Shown: positions 6,515-31,888, counted from the first letter of the stretch. The stretch: DNA of 32,000 bases from Candidatus Scalindua sp. (GCA_031316235.1 JALDRA010000001.1:570001-602000); one strand, 5' to 3'. The notes: generated by a model not told the origin, from the sequence alone. Made by a program: numbers and translations.

Positions 6515-7120
6515 TCAATTGTTCCTCTGACATAATTTCGAATCTAGTGCAACCTGGTTACGGTAAAGATCTTCATCAACAACAGATATCATATCATTCG
6601 TATTGAGAGTCTTCATCAAGAATTGATTAACCATTTTTATATGTTTGGCTGGCTCTTTTAATACTTCATTGTAATGGATGTGAAGGATTTTCATGTTTGA
6701 TTGAGTACCTATCCACCCTACTACCTTCTCTAAATGGTTATGAAAAACCATTTTCATGTTTTCATCACTTATTTGGCCTGTCGGCTGTTTTCTACCTATC
6801 AGCATACGTTTTTGAGAGTTGAGAATTTCATTCATGTTCCGATGCATAAGAATTATTTTATAGGTATATTTTTCTGGCAGATGTTGAAGAAGTGCTGTAA
6901 TAATTTTTACTCCTTTTCCTTTTGCCTCTTTCAACCATGAAGCATCTTGCGCAATCTCCTTTACTTTCTCGTATTCATAATATCCATTTGGGTTGAATTC
7001 ATCGGCTTTTCTGATTCTGTCTGTCAGGACATCCATACCGCCTGCTTCAAGCATTTTTACCATCATTGAAGTGCCGGATCGAGGTAAACCCGAAACAATA
7101 GTTATCATTTCATCAATCAT
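6515..7120 (-). CDS. Sulfotransferase-family protein (PAPS-dependent type)
   Basis: N-terminal 5'-phosphosulfate-binding-like loop IVSGLPRSGTSMM. Mid-protein HRNMNEILNS resembles the 3'-phosphate-binding R-x-x-x-[DE]-x-x-x-S motif. ~200 aa with no TM helix. The start is either ATG 7120 or ATG 7108. Confidence 0.7.
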   Translation of the reverse strand: MIDEMITIVSGLPRSGTSMMVKMLEAGGMDVLTDRIRKADEFNPNGYYEYEKVKEIAQDASWLKEAKGKGVKIITALLQHLPEKYTYKIILMHRNMNEILNSQKRMLIGRKQPTGQISDENMKMVFHNHLEKVVGWIGTQSNMKILHIHYNEVLKEPAKHIKMVNQFLMKTLNTNDMISVVDEDLYRNQVALDSKLCQRNN

Positions 7121-7242
7121 CGTTCACAGATTGTCTCAAAAAAGATGGCTTATGTACAAAACAAAATGGACAATTCCTGAGTGTCTCAAGTAAAAGCATT
7201 GGCTAACACATACCAATCATAGAGTGCATCATTTTTATATCT

Positions 7243-8073
7243 TTAAATACTAACTCTGAAAGGTCTTAACAAAAGGAAACTAAATAAAAGAGAAAGGGTA
7301 AAAAAGATTAGTATCCAATGAAAACCCCACCCAAACAACATGATCTTCATTTGAGGATATGTGACTTCAAAAAATTCCACACATCCATCTTTGTCTAAGA
7401 GAGATTCACCCGCATAGAAAAAAGATCCCATAAATCCTTCTTTTGATACTTTTGGGGCAAGCTTTGAAAGTGCGTTGCTCACAACTACTCTTTTTTTTAA
7501 TTCGATGCCAGAAAACTGAAACCTTAAATCAAAGACTCCTTCTTTCTCCGCCTTAATCCTCCAGTATATCTCCTCACCACCCCCGTTAACCCTTAGAGGA
7601 GGTGTTTCTATCTTCAACCCCTCAGGCGAAACCAGAAATCCTTTGCTACCCTTTCCCGTTAACTCTTTGGTATTCTCGATCTTTACCTTTACAATAGATA
7701 CTTCTCCAGTTCGAAGGGGTCGGTATTCATAACGCATTCCCGTCTGTATCATTATGATCATAACAGGCCAAACGACAAAACATAATGGCCTTAGCATGCT
7801 TTTTAAATAAAGGAGATTATATTTTAGTATATTTCCTTGTGCCGAGAAGACTATTCTCATATCATCTTTGAAGAGCCTTATCTCCAGAAAGTGTCCTATT
7901 ATCTTAGCTTTTGTTCGCCTTATTGATTCCTGATTTGAGGTATACTTAAAGATTGGAAGCATGATGACCGTCGTTATAAAGGAAATCGCTAACAGGCCAT
8001 ATATTGGATCGATCGTATAAAATGGGTAAAAGAATAGATCAAAAACATAATTAATAATAATAATAAAATTCAT
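7243..8073 (-). CDS. Hypothetical polytopic membrane protein with a beta-rich central domain
   Basis: ATG start. N-terminal helices with an amphipathic connector (LPIFKYTSNQESIRRTKAKIIGHFLEIRLFKDD) are vaguely reminiscent of DUF106/YidC-like insertases. The central part is soluble and beta-rich (EVSIVKVKIENTKELTG...EEIYWRIKAEKEGVFDLRFQFSG). There is a C-terminal TM helix. No family assignment is possible by eye. Confidence 0.6.
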   Translation of the reverse strand: MNFIIIINYVFDLFFYPFYTIDPIYGLLAISFITTVIMLPIFKYTSNQESIRRTKAKIIGHFLEIRLFKDDMRIVFSAQGNILKYNLLYLKSMLRPLCFVVWPVMIIMIQTGMRYEYRPLRTGEVSIVKVKIENTKELTGKGSKGFLVSPEGLKIETPPLRVNGGGEEIYWRIKAEKEGVFDLRFQFSGIELKKRVVVSNALSKLAPKVSKEGFMGSFFYAGESLLDKDGCVEFFEVTYPQMKIMLFGWGFHWILIFFTLSLLFSFLLLRPFRVSI

Positions 8074-8150
8074 ACCGGATAGATATTCAATCTCTCTTTA
8101 ACCGTAGACGGGAGTAATAACCAAATGGTTTATTGCACGAAAAATCTTTT

Positions 8151-8342
8151 TTACGACAAATAGCCTAACCCCTGCAACCTTTTTTTGATTTCCTCTTCAG
8201 AAGCAGATTCATCAAACTTCAATATCTCTTTTTCTATCATGTGGTTCACAAATTCTTCAACTGAAGAATAGCCTTTCTTTGCGGCATATGCTGTTGCTTT
8301 CTTTAACAACTCTTTATCAATCCTAATCTTTGAACTAGACAC
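8151..8342 (-). CDS. Small ribbon-helix-helix (CopG/Arc/MetJ-like) protein
   Basis: GTG start at 8342 preceded by a strong SD (aaggggaggaata-GTG). The sequence fits a strand-helix-helix pattern: KIRIDKELLKKATAYAAKKGYSSVEEFVNHMIEKEI. The tail is acidic and ends EEEIKKRLQGLGYLS. Confidence 0.6.
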   Translation of the reverse strand: MSSSKIRIDKELLKKATAYAAKKGYSSVEEFVNHMIEKEILKFDESASEEEIKKRLQGLGYLS

Positions 8343-8383
8343 TATTCCTCCCCTTTAACAATATAATTCGAATTACCCATTTG

Positions 8384-10414
8384 TTAAAAAATTGTATTTC
8401 CAACCATCTCTTTCTCTTTTTTAATACCAAATTCTGCTAAAATAGTGGGTGCAATATCATAAAGAGCAGGATCCTCTTTCCTTATCTTTCGGTTTGATAG
8501 TATAATTCCCGGGACTAGACTATTGTCCCCCAGATGTGTACCACTCCATTCCTTCATGTTGTCTCCCAGAAGTTCGTTAGGAACTTTACCTAAAGCCGTT
8601 TCCCATGATGCACGGTAACCGCGATTATAACCTATAACAAGGTCAGGTGCATCATTTCTGTATTTACCAGAATATATATCCTCTTTTTTGTAAGCCTTTT
8701 TAATGATTAAATATCCGTTTGTTGGGTCTCGCTCAACCTCAAGTTTTCTGATAATCTCTTCCAACAGCATCTCCCTCTCATTTCCTTCCAAAACGATACC
8801 AGTCCCTTCTCTCCCTTTAGTATTAATATAAATTCCATTAAAGCCAAGTGCATACGCTTTCGTTCTATTAAAATCCACATTCTCAAAAAATTCGCCGCTT
8901 TCACCTTTATATTCATGGATAAAATTAAGATATCCATTCCTTTTCAACCATGTATTCATATTAAAGTATCTACGAAAAGAGCCAAATCCGTGATCTGAAA
9001 GTACCATAATAGTAGTTTTATCTTTAATGTGGTTCATTGCCTTTCCTAAAATCCTGTCCATATCCTTATAGGTGTTTCTGATGACATGAGAATATTTCGA
9101 TGCCTCCTGAAAACTATATGCAGGATGATGCTCGTCTATGTTTCTCCAAAACATATGTTGAATTGGATCTGTCGTAGAGAAATAAACAAATAAGAGGCCT
9201 GAGTGAAATCTCCTCAATTCCATATCAAGCATCTTAACCCTTTGCTCTTTTATAAATCCAGATAGTTCCAAAAAGTTATCTTTGTGAAGATATCCCTGTT
9301 CCAATGCTTTAGTATCTTCAGGCATCCCCTGAGTGTAAAAGAGTCCAACCTCCTTGGCAACTTCAGAAGCATAGGACTTCGGTGTGCTAATATCAACAGT
9401 GGGGCTAAATGGATCAATATTAATAGGACTCACATAAAGTTCAAAATCAGGTCTCACACTCACCAAAAAAAGTCGGCATATTCCAGTTACCGTTTGAAAG
9501 GGAGCAAGTTTAAAATTAACATTCACCCAGTCACTCCACTCACCTTCATTCAAAAGAATCTCGTTTTTCCCTATCCTGATCAGAGCTACATGATTCTCCG
9601 GATCGCGCTTGATATCCACTCCTACTCTTACTCTTGATTGAGTAGTTTTAAAGGGATTTATCGGTCCCATCAACTCGGTTTTGGTGGTATCATTCAAAAA
9701 CTTTACGTTTAAAACTTTACCACTCGTAATTTCTTGCTCATTCTCTATCTCTTTAGTCGTATAAAAACTGAAGGTTCCGTACGACCCCAGTATGTCCGGC
9801 GTACCCATGCCAGACAATGTCCTCGATTTGGCTTTAACCGGTGGAAAATTCGCCGGAATCTTTATAACTGTTGAAGGAATTCCTTCAGCCTCAAGAATTT
9901 CCCAGAAAGCTTTTCCTTTTCTCAACAGTAAGGTTTCTGCCCTGGAGAATGGAATTAACCAATCTCCCAATTTAATTGTTCTCTTTGCATCGAATGTCTT
10001 TGAAGTAGAGAGGTAAGGGAGATAGGTTTTGGGCTCTCTCGCAATGAAATCAAAGATACCATGACCCCCTGGATCCATACCCGTAATTAAATTTGACCAT
10101 GCCACAGGACTTTGAGGAGGCATAGATGTGACAAGCTCCATAAAATCTCCCCTTTCCTGAAGGAGTTTAAAATTGGGCATAATTCCCTCCCCCATATATC
10201 TCCTTAACAACACCGGATCCATTCCGTCGAAACCTAAAACGAGAACTTTTTTGGTTGCCAGATCTGAGCCAGCACCACCTACCGTCGATGTGAGAAGTAT
10301 GAAAAAACCAGTGAGAAAAAACAGACTTTTCAATACAAAAAAATTTTTTTTAACCCTATCCAATTTCTCTGTCCGTATGATATTCAACCACCTGATTAGA
10401 GTCCTGAAATGCAT
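8384..10414 (-). CDS. Membrane-anchored alkaline-phosphatase-superfamily enzyme (type I phosphodiesterase/NPP-like), paralog 1
   Basis: N-terminal signal-anchor helix (FFVLKSLFFLTGFFILLTS). LVLGFDGMDP metal-site motif. MPPQSPVAWSNLITGMDPGGHGIFDF. VLSDHGF. C-terminal GTHLGDNSLVPGI and DIAPTILAEFGI. Collinear with 10468..12603 along its full length. Confidence 0.8.
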   Translation of the reverse strand: MHFRTLIRWLNIIRTEKLDRVKKNFFVLKSLFFLTGFFILLTSTVGGAGSDLATKKVLVLGFDGMDPVLLRRYMGEGIMPNFKLLQERGDFMELVTSMPPQSPVAWSNLITGMDPGGHGIFDFIAREPKTYLPYLSTSKTFDAKRTIKLGDWLIPFSRAETLLLRKGKAFWEILEAEGIPSTVIKIPANFPPVKAKSRTLSGMGTPDILGSYGTFSFYTTKEIENEQEITSGKVLNVKFLNDTTKTELMGPINPFKTTQSRVRVGVDIKRDPENHVALIRIGKNEILLNEGEWSDWVNVNFKLAPFQTVTGICRLFLVSVRPDFELYVSPINIDPFSPTVDISTPKSYASEVAKEVGLFYTQGMPEDTKALEQGYLHKDNFLELSGFIKEQRVKMLDMELRRFHSGLLFVYFSTTDPIQHMFWRNIDEHHPAYSFQEASKYSHVIRNTYKDMDRILGKAMNHIKDKTTIMVLSDHGFGSFRRYFNMNTWLKRNGYLNFIHEYKGESGEFFENVDFNRTKAYALGFNGIYINTKGREGTGIVLEGNEREMLLEEIIRKLEVERDPTNGYLIIKKAYKKEDIYSGKYRNDAPDLVIGYNRGYRASWETALGKVPNELLGDNMKEWSGTHLGDNSLVPGIILSNRKIRKEDPALYDIAPTILAEFGIKKEKEMVGNTIF

Positions 10415-10467
10415 TTTATTTTTTTTTACCCCCTCTAGAAAAACAACGATAGATGTGAGTTTAATGT

Positions 10468-12603
10468 TTAATTTATTAAAGACTTACCGTTCATATAGGA
10501 AGGAGGTTCTATTCCAAACAAATCCAGTATTGTAGGCGCCATATCGATAATATGAGGTTTATCAGATATAATTTTTTTATTACAATAGAACACTCCTGGT
10601 ACTATTTGTGGGTCCATACAATGATCTCCACTCCAGCTTTTTTTATTATCTGCAAAAACTTCTTCCTCCACTTTACCTAAAGCTGCGCCCCATGATGCCC
10701 TGTAACCCTCATTATAACCAATAATCAAGTCCGGTCCATTTTCTCTATAAGGCCCATCAAAACACTCTGTGCTGTTATAGACCTTTTTTATCGCAGTCTC
10801 CTTTTTCCCCTCATCAATTAATCCCTGCAATTTCTTTATTAACTCCTTCTTGAGTCCTTCTTTATCTTCAGGTAATACAATTCCTTTTGACTCTCTACCC
10901 GTCTGATTTATATAAATACCACTCAACCCAAAAGTGTATGCCTTTGTTTTTTTCCAATCTATATCCTGAAACCATTCTCTTCCCGTTTTTCTTCTGTTTC
11001 TCAGGGTTAGATAGCCATTTTTATAAAGCCAGGTGTTGAGATTTACGCCCCGACTAAACAGCTTGAACCCATGGTCGGAAAGAACTATGAGGACATCTTT
11101 CTCCTTAATTTTTTCCATCACCTGACCAATGAGACTATCCATCCTCATATAGAGTTTTTCTATAACATCCCTATATTTCTCTCTATCCACTCCATTATCA
11201 AGAGCAGGATGATTTTCTGACATAAAACGCATAAACATATGTTGAATTCTATCAGTTGTATCAAAAACGCATACACATAAGCCCTCTCTTGTTTTATCCA
11301 GGGCATCAAAAAACATCTTTTCTCTCTCTTGGTGATTTTGATAGGCTTGATCTAAAAAAACATCTTCATCAATAACTCGTTCGTTGAGAGCCCAAGTATC
11401 TTCAGCCAATCCCAGAGTTGCGTAACTTCCATTCATCTTGGCAAGGTAAATAGAATAGGATAAAGGAAAAGAGATAGGAAGCGAAGGTTTCTCTGGATCA
11501 ATATGTATAGGAGTCATATACATTTCAAATTTTGGATGAATTTGCTTAACAAAAAAACGGCAGATACCACAGATTTTCATGGCTGGCCCGCAACGAAACG
11601 ATAATTTAATCCATTTCGAATAGGTCCTTTTCTTTAGCATAAATTTTTCTTTAGCAATTTTTAATACAACTATTTCATTCCCACTTAGAGTAATTTCTAA
11701 TGGTATCCGCAATTCTTCGTTATCTTTTGACAAATTATTATTTGGTCCCGGTATATATGTTTTTATTTTATTGCCTTCTAAACTAACTGAAACCTGTATC
11801 CCTCCGATTCGCTTGCTTGCCTTTCTATTATTTGAGGTATAAATAGTAAATGTTCCCTGTGTCCCTTTTAAATCAGGCACACACATCCCTGAAAGCAGTA
11901 CCCCTTTCAATTTTTCTGGAGGAAAGGTAATAGGGATTCTAATAACAGAGCTGAAAATTCCGTATTCTCCCAGAATATTCCAGAAGGGCTTACTCTTTCG
12001 CAATAACTTGACTCTGGGTTTACCTCGTAAAAGTGAAAAGCTTCCTAACGAAAAAGTTTTGGAATTTTTTTCAATCTTAGTTGATGATAATTCCGGGAGG
12101 TACGTATTGAGGTCTCGGTTCAGGAAATCAAAGATATTGTGTCTGGACGGATCAACTCCTGTAATAAATGTTGACCATGCTACAGGCGATATTGATGGAA
12201 GAGTTGTTTGCAATTTCTGGTAGGTCCCAGAGCTGCTCAGTTTTAAAAGATTTGGAAGCTTTCCTTCTTTCATATACCTGGCTGCCAAATCAGGATCCAT
12301 CCCATCTAATCCGACAATGACTACACGTTTAATACCATGTTTAGCACTATTTGACTTTTTCCTTGTTACAAAAACCTTGACAATGAGTCGTAGAGGCCAG
12401 AAAAATATGGTTAATATGGCAAGAAAAATGGTGATGAAAAAAATGAAAAAGGAAGAGACAAATGCAAAGCCGGCTCCAGGTCCAATATATGCTTCAGCAA
12501 CACTCTCATGAAGGAACATTATACTTATTACAATAAACAAAAACCTTATCATTTTTGTTTGGACTAAAACAATTCGTTGTTTCCTTACACCTCTGTTTCG
12601 CAT
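10468..12603 (-). CDS. Membrane-anchored alkaline-phosphatase-superfamily enzyme (NPP-like), paralog 2
   Basis: VIVGLDGMDP, LPSISPVAWSTFITGVDPSRHNIFDF, VLSDHGF, SGDHCMDPQIVPGV, DMAPTILDLFGI. The N-terminus has a hydrophobic hairpin containing AYIGPGAGFAFVSSFFIFF that paralog 1 lacks. The true start may be the internal M at MIRFLFIV. Confidence 0.8.
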   Translation of the reverse strand: MRNRGVRKQRIVLVQTKMIRFLFIVISIMFLHESVAEAYIGPGAGFAFVSSFFIFFITIFLAILTIFFWPLRLIVKVFVTRKKSNSAKHGIKRVVIVGLDGMDPDLAARYMKEGKLPNLLKLSSSGTYQKLQTTLPSISPVAWSTFITGVDPSRHNIFDFLNRDLNTYLPELSSTKIEKNSKTFSLGSFSLLRGKPRVKLLRKSKPFWNILGEYGIFSSVIRIPITFPPEKLKGVLLSGMCVPDLKGTQGTFTIYTSNNRKASKRIGGIQVSVSLEGNKIKTYIPGPNNNLSKDNEELRIPLEITLSGNEIVVLKIAKEKFMLKKRTYSKWIKLSFRCGPAMKICGICRFFVKQIHPKFEMYMTPIHIDPEKPSLPISFPLSYSIYLAKMNGSYATLGLAEDTWALNERVIDEDVFLDQAYQNHQEREKMFFDALDKTREGLCVCVFDTTDRIQHMFMRFMSENHPALDNGVDREKYRDVIEKLYMRMDSLIGQVMEKIKEKDVLIVLSDHGFKLFSRGVNLNTWLYKNGYLTLRNRRKTGREWFQDIDWKKTKAYTFGLSGIYINQTGRESKGIVLPEDKEGLKKELIKKLQGLIDEGKKETAIKKVYNSTECFDGPYRENGPDLIIGYNEGYRASWGAALGKVEEEVFADNKKSWSGDHCMDPQIVPGVFYCNKKIISDKPHIIDMAPTILDLFGIEPPSYMNGKSLIN

Positions 12604-13460: not shown

Positions 13461-13675
13461 AAGCGTTCTCCCCTTTTTAAAATTAACAAAACAAAATTGG
13501 CAATTTACAAGCGGTCCAAAATTCCCTGGACGGTAAAACCGCTGTTTGAGTTTGCAATGTGAGTATACCCTTCCTGAGGAAGGATTTAGGATGCATCGAG
13601 CAAACGAAAGACGGCTAACAATGACGAAACTGTCATAAGCTAACACATGTAGTATCTGAATGCAAATAGAAATTA

Positions 13676-13726
13676 ACCAAGATTTGGTTACCGGTAAAAC
13701 CGAAAACCAAATCGGTTTTAGTATAT
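13676..13726. repeat. REP/MITE-like element, copy B (hairpin half)
   Basis: accaagatttggttaccggtaaaaccgaaaaccaaatcggttttagtatat. The arms gatttggttaccgg / ccgaaaaccaaatc form a ~14-bp imperfect stem with a 5-nt loop. It sits 11 nt past the stop (13738) of the 918-aa YfhO-like gene. Confidence 0.8.
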
Positions 13727-13737
13727 CAAGTTAGCTT

Positions 13738-20636: not shown

Positions 20637-20676
20637 AATAAAAGAACCACAATCAGGTTTTAACAGATTGTGGCAA

Positions 20677-25872: not shown

Positions 25873-26646
25873 TCACCAATCTACCTCTATATATCCAGAG
25901 GGGACGCTATGCCAGGTAAATTTCTTAATTTTTGGTTTTGAGCCGAAAGTTTTTTGGAAATAATCATCTATCGCCTTTGTCTCTCCGCCGAAAAGATCCA
26001 GAGCATATTCATCGGCAATGATTATTCCTCCATGCACCATTAAAGGAACAAATTTCTCTAAAGCAATTTTTGTAGGCTCATAAAGATCAAAGTCAATATT
26101 TAAGAGAGCAATCCTCAATCCATGCCCTTTCGATTCAACAAATGCAGGGATAGTTTTTAAAGCATCTCCTTTAATAAACTCTATTCTTTTGAGATGCCTG
26201 ATATGCTTATCAGCCGTCATCGCCTTTTGGGCTAAATCCATATCTCTTTCGACTGTAGTACCACCTGAAAAACCTCCCACTTTTCTCCCTCGTTCCAACT
26301 CTTCGCCTCCATCTTCTTCGGCTATGTGAGGAAAGCCCTCAAATGTATCAAAACCGTAAACAACCTTTCTGACGTCTGTAGGGCAAAATATTTCACATAG
26401 TTTTGCCCAAGTGAATGTAGATGCTCCTCTGAAAACACCGAGATCAACAATTACACCGGGCAGATTGCATATCTTCTTAAATAATTCATAATGCGTGAGA
26501 AACCTTGCAATGTTGTATCGAGGCGTATACACTGGGAAATTCCTGAACATCTCAAATGGAGAAAGCTCAGTTTTTCCGAAAAGTTCTTCCAGAATTCCCC
26601 TTTGTTGCTTTTCATTTTCATGCCGTAAAGATATATCGTCTGACAT
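25873..26646 (-). CDS. TylF/MycF/NovP-family (macrocin-type) SAM-dependent O-methyltransferase
   Basis: ATG start with AAGGGGA upstream. Family motifs: VIVDLGVFRGAST, GFDTFEGFP, NIDFDLYEPT (the metal-binding D-x-D-x-Y-x-x-T), GGIIIADEY. Confidence 0.8.
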   Translation of the reverse strand: MSDDISLRHENEKQQRGILEELFGKTELSPFEMFRNFPVYTPRYNIARFLTHYELFKKICNLPGVIVDLGVFRGASTFTWAKLCEIFCPTDVRKVVYGFDTFEGFPHIAEEDGGEELERGRKVGGFSGGTTVERDMDLAQKAMTADKHIRHLKRIEFIKGDALKTIPAFVESKGHGLRIALLNIDFDLYEPTKIALEKFVPLMVHGGIIIADEYALDLFGGETKAIDDYFQKTFGSKPKIKKFTWHSVPSGYIEVDW

Positions 26647-26748: not shown

Positions 26749-27654
26749 TCATATACATGTCTCTATTCTCTCTCTTATGTCACTGGAAGAAAAACCATAA
26801 TGCTCTCTCATACCGTTTATATTTTTGATAACATGAATAAATTCATTGGTAATTCCCATTTTCTCCAAACGATATGGACATCTCTCTTTTGTGATCCACT
26901 CTGAAATAATACCACCTAAACTTCCATCCTTAAAATTCTCCTCAACCGTTATCAGGGTATGAACGGTATCGGAAAGAATTTCTCCAAGAAATGACGTATC
27001 GAGAGGCTGAATCATAGGAACAGATATGAGCATTGGGGAGGGTTCCATCCCATCAGTTGCTTTGACAACCTCAATAGACACCGAGCCATGAAATAGGATT
27101 GCGACGTCTTTCCCCTTCTTAACGACAATCGGCCTGCTTATGTCATTCGGTGCATTTGTATGAATCACCGGTTCACCGCTTTTGGGTATCCTTATATAGG
27201 TAGGATTTTTACTTTTGTATGCATGTTCAATACAGAGCTCTGCTTCAAGAGGATCAGATGGCGACATAATTTCCATGTTTGGTAAAGTCCTCGCTAACAG
27301 CAGATCCTCCACCCCGTAATGAGTCACACCGCCTGGGGCATATGTCACTCCGCTGCCAATTCCTAATAATGTTACAGGAACCCGCTGATAACAAATATCG
27401 TTTCTGACCTGTTCATAACAGCGGTATAAGAGAAAGGGTATTATGTTGTAAACAAATACTTTATATCCAGACAACCCGAGACCTGCAGCAAAACTTATCA
27501 TATTTTGTTCAGCCACACCCATATTTAAGAACCTCTTGGGAAATTGCTCCCGATAATTTTCCCATACACCAAAACCTGCATCTCCTACAATCAAAAAAAC
27601 ATTCTTATCTTTGTTCGCAAATTCACAGATTTTCGTTGAAACACTATTTCTCAA
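26749..27654 (-). CDS. Transketolase, C-terminal (pyrimidine-binding + C-terminal domain) subunit
   Basis: GVAEQNMISFAAGLGLSGYKVFVYNIIPFL, GIGSGVTYAPGGVTHYGVEDLLLARTLPNMEIMSPSDPLE. The start must be TTG 27654 (AAGGA 9 nt upstream, 11 nt after the N-subunit stop). The next in-frame Met is already inside the conserved domain. Confidence 0.9.
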   Translation of the reverse strand: MRNSVSTKICEFANKDKNVFLIVGDAGFGVWENYREQFPKRFLNMGVAEQNMISFAAGLGLSGYKVFVYNIIPFLLYRCYEQVRNDICYQRVPVTLLGIGSGVTYAPGGVTHYGVEDLLLARTLPNMEIMSPSDPLEAELCIEHAYKSKNPTYIRIPKSGEPVIHTNAPNDISRPIVVKKGKDVAILFHGSVSIEVVKATDGMEPSPMLISVPMIQPLDTSFLGEILSDTVHTLITVEENFKDGSLGGIISEWITKERCPYRLEKMGITNEFIHVIKNINGMREHYGFSSSDIRERIETCI

Positions 27655-27665
27655 TTATTTTTTCC

Positions 27666-28475
27666 TTATTCTTGATGTAATTCCTTAAAAGCCTGCTCTT
27701 TAAACTCATCAGTGACTACATAATAATGCCATTTCATTTCGTCTTCCATAAATGAAATACCCTGGCCCTTCTTGGTATCAGCAATAAATATTTTTGGTTT
27801 CTCATTTGTTGCTTTTTTAAAGGTTTGAATAATTTCCCCAAAGTTGTGACCATTCATTCGATGGACCTCCCAACCGAAGGCCTCCCATTTATCTACAATC
27901 GGTTCGTATGAACACAACTCACTGGGTCGTCCATAACCCTGTAAATCATTACGGTCCATAATTGCTGTAAAATTGTTGAGACCTAACTTAGGAGCAAACA
28001 TAGCCCCCTCCCATATCGCCCCCTCCTGCGACTCACCATCCCCAATGATAGAAAATACTTTCCTTTTATCTCCTTTTAGTTTCAATCCATAGGCAATCCC
28101 CAACGCAATGTTGAATCCATGCCCCAGAGAACCTGCTGAAACTTCGATCCATTTATTGGTAAATTTATCAAGATGTGCTGGTAATGTCCCATCGTTTTGG
28201 AAGTATCCAAAAAATGTATCTTTATCCATTAACTTTTTGTGAGTTAACATTGCATACAGGGCCATTGCCCCATGAGCTTTGCTTAGCACGAATATATCCC
28301 TCATTGGAAAATTTTCTTCATTGATATTTAGCTCATGGTAATAGAGATATACCAATAAATCAACGCAAGAGAGCGAGGAACCGACATGGGCACTTTTTGA
28401 TTTATTCGCAACATCAATTACCAATTTCCTTACCTCTCGGGATATTTCTTTCAATTTATTTTCTAACTTATCCAT
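27666..28475 (-). CDS. Transketolase, N-terminal (thiamine-diphosphate-binding) subunit
   Basis: ATG start. SAHVGSSLSCVDLLVYLY, LSKAHGAMALYA, GSLGHGFNIALGIA, IIGDGESQEGAIWEGAMFA (G-D-G ThDP motif). Confidence 0.9.
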   Translation of the reverse strand: MDKLENKLKEISREVRKLVIDVANKSKSAHVGSSLSCVDLLVYLYYHELNINEENFPMRDIFVLSKAHGAMALYAMLTHKKLMDKDTFFGYFQNDGTLPAHLDKFTNKWIEVSAGSLGHGFNIALGIAYGLKLKGDKRKVFSIIGDGESQEGAIWEGAMFAPKLGLNNFTAIMDRNDLQGYGRPSELCSYEPIVDKWEAFGWEVHRMNGHNFGEIIQTFKKATNEKPKIFIADTKKGQGISFMEDEMKWHYYVVTDEFKEQAFKELHQE

Positions 28476-28529
28476 TTTTTCTCAATCTTTTCTTGTCAAT
28501 CGAGTTAGTGCCCCCAGCACAACTCTTTC

Positions 28530-28573
28530 AAAATGGCTACAACTACTTCCCTGTAGTTGCTTCACGCCATTTT
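28530..28573. other. Nested hairpin inside the 317-bp gap between the rSAM and transketolase genes
   Basis: The outer stem is aaaatggc (28530..28537) / gccatttt (28566..28573). The inner stem is caactac (28540..28546) / gtagttg (28553..28559) with loop ttccct. On the minus strand the structure ends in TTTT, so it could terminate or attenuate read-through from 28793..29860. Confidence 0.35.
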
Positions 28574-28792
28574 AAGTATGTGCTAATGCGCAAAATTAAT
28601 GTAGCAGATTCATTTATTCACATTTGAAAATGATAAAACTACTTGTTTTTTGTTAAACAATGGTTATTACTTCTAAAAAGAAACTCGTATAATCAATAGG
28701 CATTTTGGATTATCAAGCATTGTTCCCCTTTTTCCTGAGCATAATCATTAAGCATTTTTCTTTACCACACCCAAAGTGTGGAAAAACAGTCT

Positions 28793-29860
28793 CTAAATAA
28801 AATTAACATGTTCTGGAGGATATTTTAATTCCCAAAGATACTTATTTACCTCGTCCATCCTGCAGTTAATTCTACAACAACCGGCATCAAACTCATGCTC
28901 TACCCACTTTAATGACTCAAGCCTTCTCTCTCCCTCCCAGATTTCCCGAAAACTGCTCTCGTTTATATTGCCATAGTAGAACCTCTCATCCCCGAGATAT
29001 ACACTGCAACCCCAGACATTGCCACCAGCATCCAGATATGACCAGAAAGGAAGTGCGATACAACGATTATAATTTCTTCCGGCTTGGTCCCACTTTTTCA
29101 TAGTCTGTATCCTGAAAATAACACTAAAGGTACTCGTATTAATTCTTTCTAGGGAATCGGCAAGACCAAGATAATCACTGTATTTAATAGATTTGTATTT
29201 GTCAGTCTTGCTTAATGGGTGTTGTGAATAAGGTTTTATTACGAGATAATCCATTCCGATGTCGCGGGCCAACTCTGCAAGAAGTACGGCTTCATGCTGA
29301 TTTTCTGGCAGTAATAAGAGTTGCATACCCAATGCACACTTACACGCACTCTCTTTCCTCATTTTTACTGCATATGTCATATTTTTTATTACGGTCTCAA
29401 AATCATCAATCTTGGAGCGATGGATCTTAGCATACGTCTCTTTCGTTGCCCCATTAATACTAACCTTGATCCATTCTGTATGTGGGAGAATTTTTTCCAC
29501 GAGAGATTTGCGCAGAAAAACCCCATTGGTAGTAATGCCGACATCAATCCCCGATATCTTTGTGTGACCAATAATCTCTGCAATATCTTTATGTAAAAAA
29601 GGTTCCCCCTCACCAGCAAACATCACGCTTTTCAATCCTAGTTCTCCCATTTCGGAGAGCTTCTCTTTTAATATACTGGTATCCAGGTACCTCTTCTTAT
29701 ATTCCATAAAATCCAGGGCACAGTAACTACAACGATGGTTACACGTTCCTGAAGGACTTATCTCCATATAAATTGGGTAAATTATTTCACCGTCCAGCCA
29801 ATCGTTAACTCTTGGGACATGATAAAGAAGCTTATGGCTGTCTATTCTATATTTATCCAT
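28793..29860 (-). CDS. Radical SAM enzyme with a C-terminal auxiliary Cys-rich (twitch-like) region; paralog of 24717..25793
   Basis: ATG start 1 nt after the upstream stop. MDKYRIDSHKLLYHVPRVNDW... The rSAM cluster is SGTCNHRCSYCA. The C-terminal region is CIALPFWSYLDAGGNVWGC...GCCRINC, ending YPPEHVNFI. Confidence 0.8.
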   Translation of the reverse strand: MDKYRIDSHKLLYHVPRVNDWLDGEIIYPIYMEISPSGTCNHRCSYCALDFMEYKKRYLDTSILKEKLSEMGELGLKSVMFAGEGEPFLHKDIAEIIGHTKISGIDVGITTNGVFLRKSLVEKILPHTEWIKVSINGATKETYAKIHRSKIDDFETVIKNMTYAVKMRKESACKCALGMQLLLLPENQHEAVLLAELARDIGMDYLVIKPYSQHPLSKTDKYKSIKYSDYLGLADSLERINTSTFSVIFRIQTMKKWDQAGRNYNRCIALPFWSYLDAGGNVWGCSVYLGDERFYYGNINESSFREIWEGERRLESLKWVEHEFDAGCCRINCRMDEVNKYLWELKYPPEHVNFI

Positions 29861-29861
29861 C

Positions 29862-31409
29862 TTATTTCAAAATTGTGTGCACAAAATCCAGCAGCTCATA
29901 TTTTTCCACAGACTTCTTGTTTCCTACAATCTGAACTGCCAGCGCCCCGACAGCATTTCCGATGAACGAGACAAGATCTAATGGATGGCCAATCGCAAAA
30001 CAGGGAGCGGTATATGCAAAAAACGCATCACCCGCACCTACTGTATCAATTACCTTTGATGAAAATATTGGAGTCCTGTTTGTTTCGCCTTTTCTATTAA
30101 TCCCGATTGAACCTCCCTTACCAAGCGTCGCAATAAGGTAATCAGAATTTATGGACTTTGAGATTTTTTTTATGACATCCTTAATATCAGTAAATTTTTC
30201 CTGAGCAGCCAACCTGATTTCAAGTTCATCCAGACAGACATAATTTGGATTATGATATTTTGTAATGAGATTGTAACCTACATTAGCCCCATTGGTCTGT
30301 GTATTAATACCAAATGTCTTTGAATGCTTTTCAATAATACTGAATATTTTTTCCGTTATAAATCCATGCCCGAAATCTGAAATCAATACTAAATCATAGT
30401 TTTCTATTTCAGACTCCAGATATTTAATGATCTCCATCTCAATACGGTTGTTGATGAAAGCATCTTCCAGATAATTGATTTCAAACAGCTTTTGGTTCAG
30501 ATAGGAGTGAATATACCTCTTCTTGACAATGGTTGGGCCATCTTCCCTGTAAAAGAACTGAGAACGGACGTTTGGTTTTAAGCTGTTTAATATGAAATCT
30601 TCTCTTGTATCTTCCCTGCCCAGCACTGTTACCAGTTGTATCTCTTCACAGAGACCTGCTATATGATTGGCAATTGCAAATACGCCTCCCGCAAAGATCT
30701 CATGGGTTAAATATTTATTTACGACAAGATTCGCCTTGGAAGACTTACCCATGGTCGCGACATAATGATATTCATCAATAATACCGTCTCCAAGGAGCAG
30801 GATTTTCATCTTTTTCAACTCATCCACTTTCTCCATGATATAATCGAAACTATACTTTTCTGAAAAGTCCTGTAAAAACTTCCTGGTCTCCTCGGGATAC
30901 ACATCGAGAAAATTATTGATAATCCGTGAAGAGCTAAAGGATATTCCCCCCGTCTCACAGATCCGGCCTTGTCCAAAATAAAATTTTTTCTCCTTCTCCA
31001 AATTTTTTTCGTAAATTCCGAGATCCTGAGCTCTTCTCTTATGTGACCTCCCCTTTGAAAACACATCGGGTTTTATCCTCTGTATGCATTCAAAAGGTGT
31101 CTCATCGTCAACCAGGCAGGTGAAATCAACCTGCTCGAGAGCAGCAACATTCTCCACTCTATAATTCTCCGGGAATATGGGTCTTCCCGGCCCTTTCCGC
31201 ACATCTTTATCCTTAATTACGGTAACTATCAAAACGTCACCCTCTCTCTTCGACATATTGAGATGTTTGATGATCCCTGGATGGATGAGGTCAAAAACGC
31301 CGTGAGTCTGAACCACAACTTTACCCTGCTGTTTCAGGTTTTCAACCTTCTCAATGAGTTTATCGAACAGTAATATCTTTCTTTCTATTGATCTGTTGGT
31401 CATTGGCAA
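29862..31409 (-). CDS. Bifunctional nucleotidyltransferase (RfaE domain II/cytidylyltransferase-like, N-terminal) + PfkB-family sugar kinase (RfaE domain I-like, C-terminal)
   Basis: The longest ORF starts at TTG 31409. ATG 31403 (MTNRSIE...) is likely. The N-terminal domain has THGVFDLIHPGIIKHL...DVLIVTVIKDKDVRKGPGRPIF...GGISFSSSRII. The C-terminal domain has KILLLGDGIIDEY...FAGGVFAIANH...DTVGAGDAFFA (PfkB signature). Confidence 0.8.
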   Translation of the reverse strand: MPMTNRSIERKILLFDKLIEKVENLKQQGKVVVQTHGVFDLIHPGIIKHLNMSKREGDVLIVTVIKDKDVRKGPGRPIFPENYRVENVAALEQVDFTCLVDDETPFECIQRIKPDVFSKGRSHKRRAQDLGIYEKNLEKEKKFYFGQGRICETGGISFSSSRIINNFLDVYPEETRKFLQDFSEKYSFDYIMEKVDELKKMKILLLGDGIIDEYHYVATMGKSSKANLVVNKYLTHEIFAGGVFAIANHIAGLCEEIQLVTVLGREDTREDFILNSLKPNVRSQFFYREDGPTIVKKRYIHSYLNQKLFEINYLEDAFINNRIEMEIIKYLESEIENYDLVLISDFGHGFITEKIFSIIEKHSKTFGINTQTNGANVGYNLITKYHNPNYVCLDELEIRLAAQEKFTDIKDVIKKISKSINSDYLIATLGKGGSIGINRKGETNRTPIFSSKVIDTVGAGDAFFAYTAPCFAIGHPLDLVSFIGNAVGALAVQIVGNKKSVEKYELLDFVHTILK

Positions 31410-31411
31410 AC

Positions 31412-31888
31412 CTATTTGATAAAATGTTGATTGAGAAGTTTTGTTGATGAAAAAACTATATCCTGGGTAAACTTGATTTCTATTCCTAATTCCCTCGTCA
31501 AGTTGTATTCCTTTTGAATCTTTCCCGTTTTATCCTGCAGATTCTGAAATTCCTGTCCCTTTACATAGATATCCGGGCATAATCGCCTCAGCGTATTTTC
31601 AGCGGTAGGCCATTTATTGACAGCCACGTAATCAACACACTCTAAAGCAGCAATTGAATCTGCCCTCAGCTCCTGGTTAAAGACCGGTCTGTCCGGCCCT
31701 TTGTCAACGTACACATCAGGGGTAACTGTTATTACGAGAACGTCCCCCATCTTTTTAGCCGACTGAAAATGTTTTATGTGTCCAGGATGCATGAGATCAA
31801 AACATCCATGACAGTGAACAATTATCTTTCCTTCATTCTTCAAAGCACGGATTTTTTGTTCTAATTCATCAAATTCAAGAATCTTCAC
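31412..31888 (-). CDS. Stand-alone RfaE domain II/cytidylyltransferase-like nucleotidyltransferase
   Basis: GTG start at 31888 with GAGAGAGG 8 nt upstream; no alternative Met precedes the active-site motif. CHGCFDLMHPGHIKHF (intact HxGH), DVLVITVTPDVYVDKGPDRPVF, IVFSSTKLL. Confidence 0.8.
   Translation of the reverse strand: MKILEFDELEQKIRALKNEGKIIVHCHGCFDLMHPGHIKHFQSAKKMGDVLVITVTPDVYVDKGPDRPVFNQELRADSIAALECVDYVAVNKWPTAENTLRRLCPDIYVKGQEFQNLQDKTGKIQKEYNLTRELGIEIKFTQDIVFSSTKLLNQHFIK

Follow-up and report, generated by a model that had tools for sequence, protein, structure and literature searches.

Organization of the gene array

The window analysed here, a stretch of 32,000 nucleotides from the anammox bacterium Candidatus Scalindua sp., carries 21 minus-strand genes in a row between positions 6515 and 31888. 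According to the ORF listing, 20 of them are ORFs of at least 100 amino acids, here designated g1 to g20 from right to left, and the other is a 63-amino acid ORF (orf63, 8151-8342, minus strand). The genes are tightly packed, with junctions of 1 nt (g2/g3), 2 nt (g1/g2 and g10/g11), 7 nt (g9/g10) and 11 nt (g4/g5), and a 4-nt overlap between g11 and g12 (21627-21630). The large gaps are of 317 nt (28476-28792), 328 nt (20349-20676) and 277 nt (13461-13737), the latter presuming that g16 starts at the ATG at 13460, which yields a product of 258 amino acids, the median length of its GT2 family, rather than at the GTG further upstream, at 13646. All these figures match those in an earlier note on this sequence. 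The array is, however, bigger than first described: upstream of the window it continues with at least five further genes in the same direction, and two more cassette genes occur at 2003-4017 on the minus strand, past one plus-strand gene.

A Pfam profile search reproduced the family assignments of the earlier note, which were essentially right. Activation and thiamine diphosphate (ThDP) genes match CTP_transf_like, CTP_transf_like plus PfkB and split transketolase; tailoring genes match Radical_SAM/SPASM (three), TylF and other class I methyltransferases (three); and the remaining genes match GT2, YfhO, Phosphodiest of the AP superfamily (two) and sulfotransferase. No NCBIfam equivalog model reached its cut-off for any array gene. 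Co-directionality by itself is unremarkable in a bacterial genome, and the array is more than a chance arrangement because the synteny of its sub-blocks is conserved across phyla.

We consider it fairly probable, jointly with the pathway proposed below, that the array combines two units in a mosaic, a glycan cassette (unit A) and an unrelated, separately inherited module (module B). Unit A is made up of g1-g16, the two genes at 2003-4017, which encode a B12-radical SAM enzyme and a 151-amino acid membrane protein, and at least one upstream gene of the GSU2086 family, and it extends beyond both ends of 6515-31888. This gene set is widespread and previously undescribed. The synteny counts given for it refer to the best 80 of at least 504 loci anchored on g3, and those from de novo clustering to 84 sequences that include the window and its duplicate, L001.

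Genes of the probable glycan cassette

At the right-hand end, g1 (31412-31888) encodes a stand-alone cytidylyltransferase-like nucleotidyltransferase resembling RfaE domain II (PF01467, 55 bits), with an intact HxGH motif (HPGH) and a match of 97 bits to TIGR02199 rfaE_dom_II, under the 181.5 cut-off. Its neighbour g2 (29862-31409; homologues in 50/80 loci) encodes an N-terminal cytidylyltransferase-like domain, 40% identical to g1, and a C-terminal PfkB kinase of the heptose-7-phosphate-kinase type, reversing the domain order of HldE. The top NCBIfam matches of g2 are HldE and rfaE_dom_I, both under cut-off, and its closest PDB relatives are HldC (5x9q) and HldA (4e84). Of the two RfaE-II-type nucleotidyltransferases previously proposed, g1 is indeed intact, but the domain fused in g2 is degenerate (HPGI), having lost the second His of HxGH. 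Likewise, the g2 motif reads HPG[IVL] in every locus with a detected stand-alone g1 (13 by ORF clustering, including the window and L001, plus three by tblastn), and loci without g1 retain HxGH in g2. These motifs suggest that g1 and g2 share labour, g1 probably being the active sugar-1-phosphate nucleotidyltransferase and g2 the kinase.

The gene immediately upstream of g1 belongs to the GSU2086 family (373 bits, cut-off 250), which in Geobacter lies between hldE and gmhA with a common Tn-seq phenotype (PMC5585712). Because HldC and HldA are the closest solved relatives, and because related genes are accompanied by GmhA-like SIS, GT9 heptosyltransferase-family and GSU2086 genes, the right-hand genes can be assigned to heptose-type activation, as the earlier note had it. 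The window lacks a GmhA-like isomerase, and the Pfam-annotated loci showed no GmhB-type phosphatase, so the substrate may differ from glycero-manno-heptose; judging from the sequences, the sugar is probably of an unusual heptose type.

The cassette anchor, g3 (28793-29860), encodes a radical SAM enzyme (Pfam) with one auxiliary-cluster (twitch/SPASM-like) domain and invariant cysteines at C40/C44/C47 and C267/C285/C329/C333. DesII, SkfB, viperin, BlsE and MoaA are the nearest folds to its predicted structure, and these are weak evidence given a poor model (mean pLDDT 64, with the C-terminal domain below 50). Downstream lie the genes for a split transketolase-like enzyme, with g4 (27666-28475) encoding the ThDP-binding N-terminal subunit (Transketolase_N) and g5 (26749-27654) the pyrimidine-binding and C-terminal subunit (Transket_pyr, Transketolase_C).

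Tailoring genes sit together with those for activation, in agreement with the earlier description. They include g6 (25873-26646), for a TylF-family O-methyltransferase (PF05711, 41.5 bits against a cut-off of 23) that is lineage-specific, with a homologue in 1/80 loci, and g7 (24717-25793), for a second radical SAM/SPASM enzyme that is a paralogue of g3 (32% identical) and whose homologues, around 41% identical, occur in 32 of the 80 loci, usually in the order GT2 then g7. The class I SAM methyltransferase encoded by g8 (23844-24635; Methyltransf_11) would also be lineage-specific tailoring, with merely weak homologues among the g3 loci, as would the third radical SAM/SPASM enzyme, from g11 (21627-22670; Pfam; homologues in three of the 80). 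Two further class I methyltransferases, g12 (20677-21630; Methyltransf_23) and g13 (19416-20348; Pfam), carry N-terminal zinc ribbons read from sequence, of the form CxxC...CxxC in g12. Outside the array, the B12-binding radical SAM gene (2506-4017; Pfam B12-binding plus Radical_SAM), with homologues in 42/80 loci and a family found in 43 g3 loci by de novo clustering, encodes a probable C-methyltransferase or rearranging enzyme. It is followed by the gene for the 151-amino acid membrane protein (2003-2458), which has hydrophobic segments and whose homologues hold the same position after the B12 gene in cassettes of Deltaproteobacteria (L069, L078, L079, L080). In a sister genome, the B12-radical SAM product is 93% identical and its gene lies directly downstream of GT2.

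The core cassette gene g16 (12684-13460) encodes a GT2 of the polyprenyl-phosphate-sugar synthase type (DPM1/GtrB/ArnC-like), with Pyrococcus DPMS (5mlz), GtrB (5ekp) and ArnC as top PDB matches and no hydrophobic segment or predicted transmembrane helix. Homologues occur in 37/80 loci, the closest being 46-68% and the weakest 23-37% identical, near g3 and its ThDP partner. Two small membrane proteins, g9 (23208-23792; N-terminal hydrophobic segments, soluble C-terminal domain, no Pfam family at cut-off) and its partner g10 (22673-23200), form a conserved pair travelling with GT2; g9 homologues, 40-46% identical, were found in 13-17 loci, nearly always with GT2 (g9 in 13/80 and g10 in 12/80 by synteny; 17 and 14, respectively, by de novo clustering). 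The polytopic GT-C glycosyltransferases are g15 (13738-16494; YfhO 40.7 bits against a cut-off of 28.5; 13 hydrophobic segments; named 'YfhO family protein' by NCBI) and the YfhO-like candidate g14 (16529-19393), with 11 hydrophobic segments, 28% identity to g15 over the membrane domain, a YfhO score of just 16 bits, under cut-off, and a C-terminal LamG (concanavalin-like lectin) domain (Laminin_G_3, 42 bits). The sister genome has a YfhO plus F5/8C paralogue in place of g14.

The earlier proposal of lipid-linked transfer by GT2 and YfhO is borne out by a linkage conserved across phyla, since g15 homologues (46% identical) lie inside the cassette, between g9 and g10, in L005 and L170. It had also called unusual the absence of Wzx/Wzy/Wzz, ABC exporter, ligase and initiating transferase; these genes are indeed missing, but their absence is to be expected in a system of polyprenyl-phosphate-sugar plus GT-C, of the kind reviewed in PMC8035078. 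A GtrA-type flippase is missing too, which counts against the pathway proposed here.

Conservation and proposed role of the cassette

Searches with g3 retrieve 4918 homologues, and those 57-71% identical occupy at least 504 species-level genome loci from more than 10 phyla, including archaea and CPR bacteria. Elsewhere the cassette consists of g1/g2, g3, g4/g5, g16, g7, B12-radical SAM and g9/g10, in some genomes with a YfhO GT-C, and in Scalindua it is interspersed with extra methyltransferase genes. Related loci also contain GmhA-like SIS genes (33 loci), a GDP-mannose-4,6-dehydratase-like SDR (32 loci), GT9 (12 loci) and an MptA_B glycosyltransferase, and L083 and L085 carry YfhO and PMT_2 genes at a distance of 5-10 kb upstream. 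For most of the large membrane proteins encoded in related loci, no Pfam family matched.

Our results suggest that unit A probably makes an unusual heptose-type sugar, which is linked to a lipid carrier and then attached on the outside of the cell. In the cytoplasm, a heptose-type sugar phosphate would be phosphorylated by the PfkB domain of g2 and then nucleotide-activated by g1. The radical SAM enzyme g3 and the split ThDP enzyme g4/g5 would act as an obligate pair, in which g3 most likely creates a carbonyl on the nucleotide sugar by oxidation or dehydration and g4/g5 then adds a two-carbon unit, giving a branched or chain-extended higher-carbon sugar. This could be tailored by the methyltransferases g6, g8, g12 and g13, the radical SAM enzymes g7 and g11 and the B12-radical SAM enzyme. 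At the membrane, g16 would place the sugar on polyprenyl phosphate; g9/g10 might, as a guess, anchor this GT2, which has no transmembrane helix, or aid the lipid-linked sugar across the membrane, and g14 and g15 would pass it on the outer face to an envelope acceptor, possibly a glycan or S-layer glycoprotein.

Sedoheptulose 7-phosphate is both a product of transketolase and the entry substrate of NDP-heptose pathways, and known sugar-modifying enzymes include radical SAM epimerases and dehydratases as well as B12-dependent C-methyltransferases, for example AprD4 and GenK. Unit A could thus be an ordinary heptose glycan locus, with adjoining GmhA-like and HldE-like genes, in which the transketolase only supplies sedoheptulose 7-phosphate and the radical SAM enzymes do no more than epimerise, deoxygenate or methylate, without any new carbon skeleton. 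We regard this as rather unlikely from the conservation of the ThDP pair, which directly follows g3 in nearly all of those among the best 80 loci whose sequence continues beyond g3, in the variants TKN+TKC, TKN plus short Transket_pyr and E1alpha plus beta-like. In some 21 of the 84 clustered sequences, an E1_dh alpha (pyruvate-dehydrogenase E1alpha-like) subunit replaces the transketolase N subunit, and such an enzyme is incapable of making sedoheptulose 7-phosphate, yet able to act as a C2 donor. The pair is also linked to g3 and not to isomerase or kinase genes, with Brocadiaceae and Deltaproteobacteria loci containing g3 and the ThDP genes without g2 or SIS, and the 57-83% identity of g3 across bacterial phyla and archaea argues for a very constrained, specific reaction.

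It is very improbable that unit A modifies a membrane lipid or cofactor instead of a surface glycan, for instance a hopanoid- or ladderane-type head group or a polyprenyl-linked end product. In favour of this, hopanoid cyclitol-ether synthesis (HpnI/HpnJ) shares the logic of GT2 plus radical SAM, some cassettes include a CbiR-like gene, and the B12-radical SAM protein matches HpnJ, HpnR and 'lipid biosynthesis B12-binding/radical SAM protein', but all these matches are far under their NCBIfam cut-offs, and the cassette occurs in CPR bacteria, DPANN archaea and many phyla without ladderanes. A glycan or glycoprotein as acceptor is also what the YfhO, PMT_2, MptA_B and GT9 glycosyltransferases and the fusions to lectin domains (LamG, F5/8C) suggest.

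The adjoining module B

Module B starts with g17 (10468-12603), for an AP-superfamily (Phosphodiest) protein with N-terminal hydrophobic segments, no PDB relative found and at least 8000 homologue clusters, and continues with its paralogue g18 (8384-10414; AP superfamily by Pfam, 41% identical). The earlier note took these AP-superfamily enzymes as extracytoplasmic; the family stands, and the location is at most putative for g17. The conserved orf63 has no Pfam family. That it is a real gene follows from its presence, with 41-75% identity and in the same slot of the module, at about 60 of 80 related loci. It is followed by g19 (7243-8073), for a 276-amino acid membrane protein without a Pfam family, and g20 (6515-7120), for a small cytoplasmic PAPS-type sulfotransferase (Sulfotransfer_1, 35.5 bits against a cut-off of 22) with PAPS-binding motifs read from sequence. 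Copies of an intergenic repeat flank g16-g20 as a single block.

At least 547 metagenome loci carry the module. Among 80 g17-anchored loci, we detected g19 in 66, g18 in 63 and g20, an optional member, in 14. Its contexts are variable, with housekeeping neighbours elsewhere such as an HflX-like GTPase and an M24 peptidase. A self-contained, very widespread and uncharacterised module, with both AP-superfamily enzymes anchored in the membrane, that merely lies beside unit A in Scalindua is, jointly with our proposal for unit A, the reading we favour.

The earlier note had instead joined all 21 genes in one pathway, the AP-superfamily enzymes and the sulfotransferase adding or trimming phosphate or sulfate last. 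This might be supported by the co-directional genes and short junctions, by the position of GT2 directly upstream of g17 and by the repeat copies bracketing g16-g20 together. However, none of the 80 g3 loci has homologues of g17-g20 and none of the 80 g17-anchored loci has a g1-g15 homologue within 10 kb, so that this sub-block never accompanies g1-g15 in either set; moreover, g20 lacks both a signal peptide and a transmembrane segment and would thus sulfate a cytoplasmic substrate. The sister genome, L169, is 84-87% identical to the window at the DNA level in g15, g16 and the B12-radical SAM gene, and in it positions 4326-12391 are replaced by about 960 nt with an IS3-type OrfA fragment, which leaves g17 truncated after codon 71 and the glycan genes intact. 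L169 has, therefore, lost module B by an IS-associated deletion while keeping the cassette. A single pathway is thus the favoured reading for g1-g16 and is not supported for g17-g20 as its final steps; its extension to the latter is largely refuted by synteny and appears very improbable, and a sulfated or phospho-substituted product is left without support, g17-g20 being an independent module. The g17 relic in L169 nevertheless shows that module B adjoined GT2 in the common ancestor, an adjacency ancestral within Scalindua that agrees with the single pathway, and there may be a lineage-specific functional link.

Gene content and extent of the array

The window (G+C ca. 37%) comes from a marine anammox planctomycete, and 21 consecutive genes run along its minus strand at 6515-31888: 20 ORFs of at least 100 aa, numbered g1 to g20 in the direction of transcription, and a 63-aa ORF, orf63 (8151-8342), between g18 and g19. 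The spacing reported in an earlier note on this DNA was reproduced, with junctions as tight as 1, 2, 2, 7 and 11 nt, one 4-nt overlap and three large gaps of 317, 328 and 277 nt, the last of which holds if the GT2 gene g16 starts at ATG 13460. The longest ORF for g16 (12684-13646, minus strand) starts at GTG 13646 and encodes 320 aa; we took ATG 13460 as the start because it is favoured by the homologues and gives 258 aa, the median length of the family. The called start of g2 (513 aa) lies 2 codons after a TTG start.

A Pfam scan, the profile check called for in that note, reproduced its family calls, all of them for minus strand genes: CTP_transf_like in g1 (31412-31888), CTP_transf_like plus PfkB in g2 (29862-31409), Radical_SAM plus SPASM in g3, g7 and g11, a split transketolase in g4/g5, TylF in g6, class I methyltransferases in g8, g12 and g13, a weak YfhO plus LamG in g14 (16529-19393), YfhO in g15, GT2 in g16 (12684-13460), Phosphodiest, of the AP superfamily, in g17 and g18, and a sulfotransferase in g20 (6515-7120). 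No Pfam family reached its cut-off for g9, g10, g19 or orf63, and the NCBIfam scan of the array genes yielded no equivalog above cut-off for any of them. Four paralogue pairs occur within the array: g3/g7 (32% identity), g1 and the N-terminal domain of g2 (40%), g14/g15 (28%) and g17/g18 (41%).

The array is longer than the span first described. In L001, an independent assembly of the same sequence, five further co-directional genes lie upstream of the window, encoding a CTP_transf_3 cytidylyltransferase, a 573-aa protein, two methyltransferases and, just upstream of the window (L001 4948-5916), a 322-aa protein of the GSU2086 family (NCBIfam NF052581, 373 bits vs a cut-off of 250). To the left of the span, beyond a plus strand gene, there are minus strand genes for a B12-binding radical SAM protein (2506-4017) and for a 151-aa membrane protein (2003-2458), whose families recur in related loci. 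A role of the B12-radical SAM gene in ladderane or hopanoid lipid biosynthesis was rejected on score and taxonomic distribution. Scans for promoters and terminators gave counts at or below shuffle expectation, with no terminator in the three large gaps, and Rfam and tRNA scans of the window returned no matches.

An intergenic repeat of ca. 45-65 nt, with the core AAAACCGAAAAYCAAATCGGTTTTAGTATAT containing an 8-bp hairpin, is present in three copies (6418-6482, plus; 13662-13726, plus; 20577-20635, minus), none being expected by chance. Two of the large gaps each contain one copy, and the blocks g13-g15 and g16-g20 are framed by the repeats. L001, a short-read contig, ends at window position 20604, inside the third copy, which suggests a multi-copy REP/MITE-like element in this genome; none of the other loci fetched has the repeat. 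Between g3 and g4, the gap of 317 nt (28476-28792) is unusual, since homologous pairs are typically ca. 10-30 nt apart, and it contains no Rfam match, no copy of the repeat and no convincing ORF.

Two units with separate distributions

All 21 genes had originally been read as a single glycan pathway. Synteny in related loci upholds this for the activation, tailoring, GT2 and YfhO genes, and separates from them the tail with the AP-superfamily and sulfotransferase genes. We thus distinguish a unit A (g1-g16, the B12-radical SAM gene, the 151-aa membrane gene and the GSU2086-family gene), a putative heptose-type surface-glycan cassette, from a unit B (g17, g18, orf63, g19 and, optionally, g20; 6515-12603, minus strand).

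The radical SAM protein g3 has homologues in 4918 clusters, the best ca. 70% identical and from Brocadia, Omnitrophota, Thermodesulfovibrionales and other groups, and a scan with one genome per species retrieved at least 504 g3 loci. The best 80 of these (57-71% identical) come from bacteria (Brocadiaceae, other Planctomycetota, Omnitrophota, Elusimicrobia, Nitrospirota, Desulfobacterota, Hydrogenedentota and Parcubacteria) and from archaea (Nanoarchaeia, Undinarchaeota, Methanoperedens and Hydrothermarchaeota), and were compared by tblastn of all window proteins and by de novo ORF clustering (84 sequences). Nearly all loci whose sequence extends past g3 have a two-subunit ThDP enzyme directly after it. 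Upstream, the activation set varies, comprising a GDP-mannose-4,6-dehydratase-like SDR, g2 and a GmhA-like SIS gene, or the GSU2086 family, g1 and g2, with or without SIS; Brocadiaceae loci carry a GT9 (heptosyltransferase-family) gene in its place. The downstream set contains GT2, a g7-like radical SAM gene, the B12-radical SAM gene and the pair g9/g10, the closest GT2s being 46-68% identical to g16. By tblastn, g2 was found in 50 of the best 80 loci, g4 and the B12-radical SAM gene in 42 each, GT2 in 37, g7 in 32, g5 in 28, the GSU2086 family in 21, g1 in 17, g9 in 13 and g10 in 12. The set can be compact, as in the contig L166 (g3 82% identical), with the order g3, transketolase N subunit (TKN), transketolase pyrimidine-binding subunit (TKpyr), g7, LPG_synthase_TM, GT2, B12-radical SAM, g9, g10; in the locus L170 the order is g1, g2, SIS, g3, TKN, TKpyr, GT2, g7, a CbiR-like gene, g9, YfhO, g10 and B12-radical SAM. 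Conversely, g6 (1/80), g11 (3/80), g12 (1/80) and g13 (2/80) are rare and g8 gave weak matches only, indicating that these five are lineage-specific tailoring genes. Literature searches for the gene combination (radical SAM with transketolase and heptose, glycosyltransferase or cytidylyltransferase; YfhO with radical SAM) retrieved nothing relevant.

Unit B is found elsewhere. A metagenome scan anchored on g17/g18 retrieved at least 547 loci; among the best 80, g19 is present in 66, g18 in 63, orf63 in ca. 60 and g20 in 14, in the orders g17, g18, orf63, g19 (then g20) or g18, orf63, g19, g17, g20. The module combines two or three paralogues of the AP superfamily with one small protein, one membrane protein and, optionally, a sulfotransferase, and it is highly conserved, with 50-70% identity in Acidobacteriota, Thermodesulfobacteriota, Aminicenantia, Spirochaetes, Planctomycetota and others. 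Within 10 kb of unit B, none of these 80 loci has a homologue of g1-g15, and a weak GT2 appears in one only; likewise, the best 80 g3 loci contain no homologues of g17-g20. The neighbours of unit B are unrelated (HflX-like GTPase, M24 peptidase, ADP-forming CoA ligase and sulfatase-TPR proteins), with sulfatase-TPR genes flanking it in 26 of the 80 loci. The g17 family comprises at least 8000 clusters at E ≤ 1e-30, its sole name is 'alkaline phosphatase family protein', and a PDB sequence search with g17 found no solved relative.

The genome of a sister lineage (L169, GCA_024449855.1) shares 84-87% DNA identity with the window over g15, g16 and the B12-radical SAM, 151-aa and F5/8C genes. In it, window positions 4326-12391 are replaced by ca. 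960 nt with an IS3-type OrfA fragment (HTH_Tnp_1), L169 14013-15183 being the equivalent of window 4326-12603, so that most of g17, and g18, orf63, g19, g20 and the plus strand sulfatase-like gene (4700-6355), are missing. The first 71 codons of g17 persist beside the IS fragment, indicating that unit B lay next to the GT2 gene in the common ancestor and that the sister lineage lost it by an IS-associated deletion, with the glycan genes left intact. We had also considered that unit B was inserted into the window genome, and rejected it on the same relic. The slot of g14 is occupied in L169 by another YfhO paralogue (with F5/8C, not LamG) and the upstream tailoring genes differ, as expected of the variability of a surface-glycan locus. 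By tblastn, the 151-aa membrane gene matches L169 in two pieces that are not in the same frame, possibly through a frameshift or an error in sequencing.

The AP enzymes and the sulfotransferase had been taken for the last steps of the pathway, yielding a sulfated or phospho-substituted product. The mutual absence in the two sets of 80 loci and the loss in the sister genome argue against such steps, and a product of that kind found no support; conservation of the gene neighbourhood, which the earlier note had proposed to examine, does not extend to the sub-block g17-g20, an outcome that it had itself named as speaking against a single pathway. By these comparisons, unit B is an unrelated, widespread module whose function is uncharacterised in the libraries searched; it is even more widespread than the cassette and merits its own study. 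In all, a long co-directional array ought not to be read as a single pathway without comparative evidence.

Individual products of unit B deserve some comment. Although without a Pfam family, orf63 is 41-75% identical in ca. 60 of the 80 loci, indicating that it is a genuine gene; by eye, it resembles a small helical, possibly ribbon-helix-helix-like protein. The g20 product scored 35.5 bits on Sulfotransfer_1 (cut-off 22) and shows, as read by eye, the motifs GLPRSGTS and HRNMNEILNS, the 5'-PSB P-loop and 3'-PB motif by which a PAPS-dependent sulfotransferase is predicted. By the positive-inside rule, the 'extracytoplasmic' location ascribed to the AP enzymes may not hold for both: with its K/R-rich N-terminus and single hydrophobic segment, g18 probably has its catalytic domain outside the membrane, but in g17 a K/R-rich stretch comes after two hydrophobic segments, and its domain may thus face the cytoplasm. 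Between the two parts of unit A, and on the opposite strand, 4700-6355 (plus) encodes a 'sulfatase'-family protein with a Tat signal (RRDFLK). It reads T-A-P-S-H at the usual C/S-x-P-x-R formylglycine site, so it is probably not a true sulfatase and is probably a Thr-nucleophile AP-superfamily phosphoesterase or transferase.

Sugar activation and the radical SAM/ThDP pair

Several lines of sequence evidence point to a heptose-type precursor for unit A. Among solved structures, g2 is closest to HldC (5x9q), a Thermoplasma 'LPS core biosynthesis protein' (3glv) and HldA (4e84); in NCBIfam its best matches, all below cut-off, are to HldE and to domains I and II of rfaE. The C-terminal domain of g2 scored 112 bits on TIGR02198 (cut-off 345), the HldE model NF008454 gave 169 bits (cut-off 521), and g1 scored 97 bits on TIGR02199 (cut-off 181.5).

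The second histidine of the HxGH motif is a catalytic hallmark of the nucleotidyltransferase superfamily. The motif is intact in g1 and degenerate in g2 (HPGI), and at the second nucleotidyltransferase motif g1 has FTQDIVFSST, g2 ETGGISFSSS. We found a stand-alone g1 in 16 loci, 13 by ORF clustering (including the window and its duplicate L001) and three more by tblastn; in all 16 the nucleotidyltransferase domain of g2 has HPG[I/V/L] and g1 keeps HxGH, whereas g2 keeps HxGH in those of the g3-related loci (L003-L085) without a detected g1. The loss of the second histidine of g2 coincides exactly with the stand-alone g1, and looks like a pseudo-enzyme and its replacement. In Scalindua, there is thus probably a division of labour in which g1 is the active nucleotidyltransferase and the N-terminal domain of g2 a pseudo-enzyme.

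Unit A shares with the ADP-/NDP-heptose pathway (GmhA, HldE or HldA plus HldC, GmhB, HldD; see also the cross-kingdom 'heptose biosynthetic enzymes' of Tang et al. 2024, as summarised in PMC11461863) a PfkB kinase and a cytidylyltransferase-fold nucleotidyltransferase, closest among solved structures to HldA and HldC. Many related loci also have GmhA-like SIS genes (33 of the 84 clustered sequences; 98 bits vs a cut-off of 209) and GT9 genes (12 loci), and there are 4,6-dehydratase-like SDR genes in 32 loci. However, the domain order of g2 is reversed (nucleotidyltransferase, then kinase), no score reaches its equivalog cut-off, the variant with g1 has a degenerate fused nucleotidyltransferase, and the motif (F/L)xxGxSTT reads here FTx[DE][IV]xFSS[ST]; moreover, we found no SIS-domain gene for GmhA in the window or L001, and no HAD-type phosphatase for GmhB in the window or the Pfam-annotated related loci. 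In Geobacter sulfurreducens, a GSU2086-family gene lies between hldE and gmhA, and the three genes show the same Tn-seq defect (PMC5585712). This family is tied to HldE-like and GmhA-like genes both in Geobacter and in the unit A cassette. A PDB sequence search with the GSU2086-family protein gave no meaningful match; we consider it a candidate for the missing heptose-activation step, for example in a GmhB-like phosphatase role.

The g3 product has a CX3CX2C motif and four further invariant C-terminal cysteines. Four extra cysteines of this kind correspond to a single auxiliary cluster, the arrangement of twitch-type radical SAM dehydrogenases, and we infer that g3 bears one. Its neighbours in sequence or fold (MoaA, BlsE, DesII, viperin and BtrN) act on nucleotides or nucleotide sugars, which is only suggestive, and its AlphaFold model is poor (pLDDT 64), being derived from a shallow, low-diversity alignment. 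On the DesII equivalog TIGR04426 (cut-off 450), g3 reached 44.9 bits and g7 34.5 bits, a likeness at the fold level only.

Transketolase domains are complete across g4/g5 (Transketolase_N, 97 bits in g4; Transket_pyr, 94, and Transketolase_C, 30 bits, in g5), the cut-offs of full-length transketolase equivalogs not being applicable to such half-proteins, and the main rival explanation is that this transketolase merely supplies the precursor. The partner of g3, however, is not always of this type: it can be Transketolase_N with Transket_pyr/Transketolase_C, Transketolase_N with a short Transket_pyr protein or, in ca. 21 loci, pyruvate-dehydrogenase E1alpha-like and beta-like subunits (E1alpha 343 bits on TIGR03182). 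Transketolase-type and E1-type partners both transfer a two-carbon unit, bound to ThDP, onto a carbonyl, and they do not share the synthesis of sedoheptulose 7-phosphate, which favours a model in which g3 would generate a carbonyl on a nucleotide sugar and the ThDP enzyme (g4/g5) would then add a C2 unit to it, giving a branched or chain-extended sugar. We advance this model tentatively, judging it rather less likely than not. A keto-sugar intermediate would fit with the genes for DegT aminotransferase (12 loci) and RmlD-like reductase (10 loci) that related cassettes contain.

There are precedents in branched deoxysugars for a radical SAM enzyme followed by a ThDP enzyme, in aldgarose (DesI/DesII, then the E1alpha/beta-like AlmDI/DII), and for ThDP-dependent two-carbon branching, in avilamycin (AviB1/B2) and yersiniose A (YerE). 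Common to these pathways and unit A is a nucleotide-sugar-type radical SAM enzyme beside a ThDP-dependent C2-transferring enzyme, and many related loci add, as in the DesI/DesII route, a 4,6-dehydratase-like SDR and a DegT aminotransferase. Unlike them, unit A would serve a primary envelope glycan and not an antibiotic, its substrate is apparently a heptose, the window has no dehydratase or aminotransferase, and g3 is not a DesII orthologue and has an auxiliary-cluster domain; to our knowledge, none has been reported for DesII. The fuller proposal, that g3 and its near-always adjacent ThDP partner form a new two-enzyme route from a nucleotide-activated heptose to a sugar with a two-carbon branch or an extended chain (C9), which polyprenyl phosphate would carry and GT-C enzymes would install, is slightly more doubtful than the model of carbonyl formation and C2 addition, and on balance unlikely. 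If true, it would represent a previously unrecognised, anaerobe-typical envelope modification common to many bacterial phyla, CPR and archaea.

Membrane steps and comparison with glycosylation systems

The g16 product (Pfam GT2, 68 bits) has no predicted transmembrane helix, and its closest solved relatives are the polyprenyl-phosphate sugar synthases DPMS (5mlz, 3e-10), GtrB (5ekp) and ArnC; it is thus predicted to be a polyprenyl-monophosphate-sugar GT2 of the DPMS/GtrB/CsbB/ArnC type. With 40.7 bits on YfhO (cut-off 28.5) and 13 hydrophobic segments, g15 has the features of a polytopic GT-C, and g14 reached only 16 bits on YfhO, below cut-off. Linkage of GT-C and GT2 genes recurs in five related loci (L005, L170, L053, L083 and L085): a homologue of g15 (46% identical, ca. 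1085 aa) lies inside the cassette, between g9 and g10, in L005 (Nitrospirae) and L170; in L083 and L085 the region 5-10 kb upstream of the cassette contains YfhO, PMT_2 and MptA_B genes; and another YfhO occurs in L053. Most large polytopic membrane proteins of related cassettes have no Pfam family. The small proteins g9 and g10 score below every Pfam cut-off, with an LPG_synthase_TM protein in a comparable slot in L166 and L169.

Multi-component transmembrane glycosylation consists of a GT2, a flippase and a GT-C, with no Wzx/Wzy, ligase or initiating phosphoglycosyltransferase, as in CsbB/GtcA/YfhO (lipoteichoic acid), GtrA/GtrB/GtrC (O-antigen), ArnC/ArnE-F/ArnT (lipid A), Pgf in Streptococcus mutans and DPM1/PMT in eukaryotes (PMC8035078, PMC7389260). 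Unit A has likewise a DPMS/GtrB/ArnC-type cytoplasmic GT2 (g16) and YfhO-family GT-C proteins (g14, g15), and the small membrane pair g9/g10 recalls ArnE/ArnF or DPM2/DPM3. ArnE/ArnF are a flippase pair, and DPM2/DPM3 anchor DPM1, itself without a transmembrane helix. The earlier note had regarded the lack of Wzx/Wzy, ligase and initiating transferase as unusual; in the Pfam scan of 25 window proteins, we indeed found no Wzx/Wzy flippase/polymerase, ABC exporter, chain-length regulator or initiating phosphoglycosyltransferase family, but these absences are ordinary in systems that follow the GT2/flippase/GT-C logic, which needs none of those genes. L170 does carry a Wzx-like gene, Polysacc_synt, on the downstream side of its cassette.

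There are also clear differences. The multi-component systems move common sugars (Glc, GlcNAc, Gal, Ara4N, Man) supplied by housekeeping enzymes, whereas the GT2 of unit A is part of a dedicated pathway, in which HldE-like activation genes and a ThDP enzyme are joined by three to five radical SAM enzymes; unit A lacks a GtrA/GtcA-family flippase (no GtrA-family Pfam match in any window protein), its host is a Gram-negative-type planctomycete, and the cassette is also present in archaea. Taken together, unit A is probably a GT2 plus GT-C periplasmic glycosylation system fed by an undescribed, very widespread radical SAM/ThDP heptose-tailoring cassette. If this holds, a lipid-carrier/GT-C glycosylation system would be fed by a sugar-tailoring cassette of which we found no description and which at least 504 species-level genomes contain, ranging from anammox bacteria to Omnitrophota, Nitrospirota, Desulfobacterota, CPR and DPANN/methanotrophic archaea. 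Testable roles would then follow for the radical SAM family, with its 57-83% identity between domains of life, and likewise for its ThDP partner, for the GSU2086 family and for the unnamed membrane-protein pair.

As to the acceptor, the S-layer protein Kustd1514 of Kuenenia stuttgartiensis, also an anammox planctomycete, carries a heavily methylated O-glycan with mainly HexNAc sugars and an unidentified 174-Da unit (PMC5088730). By analogy, an S-layer glycoprotein is a plausible acceptor class for unit A, although the genes for the Kuenenia glycan were not identified in that work; if the model holds, unit A would supply candidates for the genes behind methylated surface glycans in anammox bacteria. 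Finally, carbohydrate-binding-type domains recur in and around the locus: a membrane-anchored F5/8 type C protein is encoded at 1042-1938 (plus), LamG is fused to g14 (16529-19393), and in the sister genome (L169 6515-9991) an F5/8C domain is fused to the YfhO paralogue standing in for g14.
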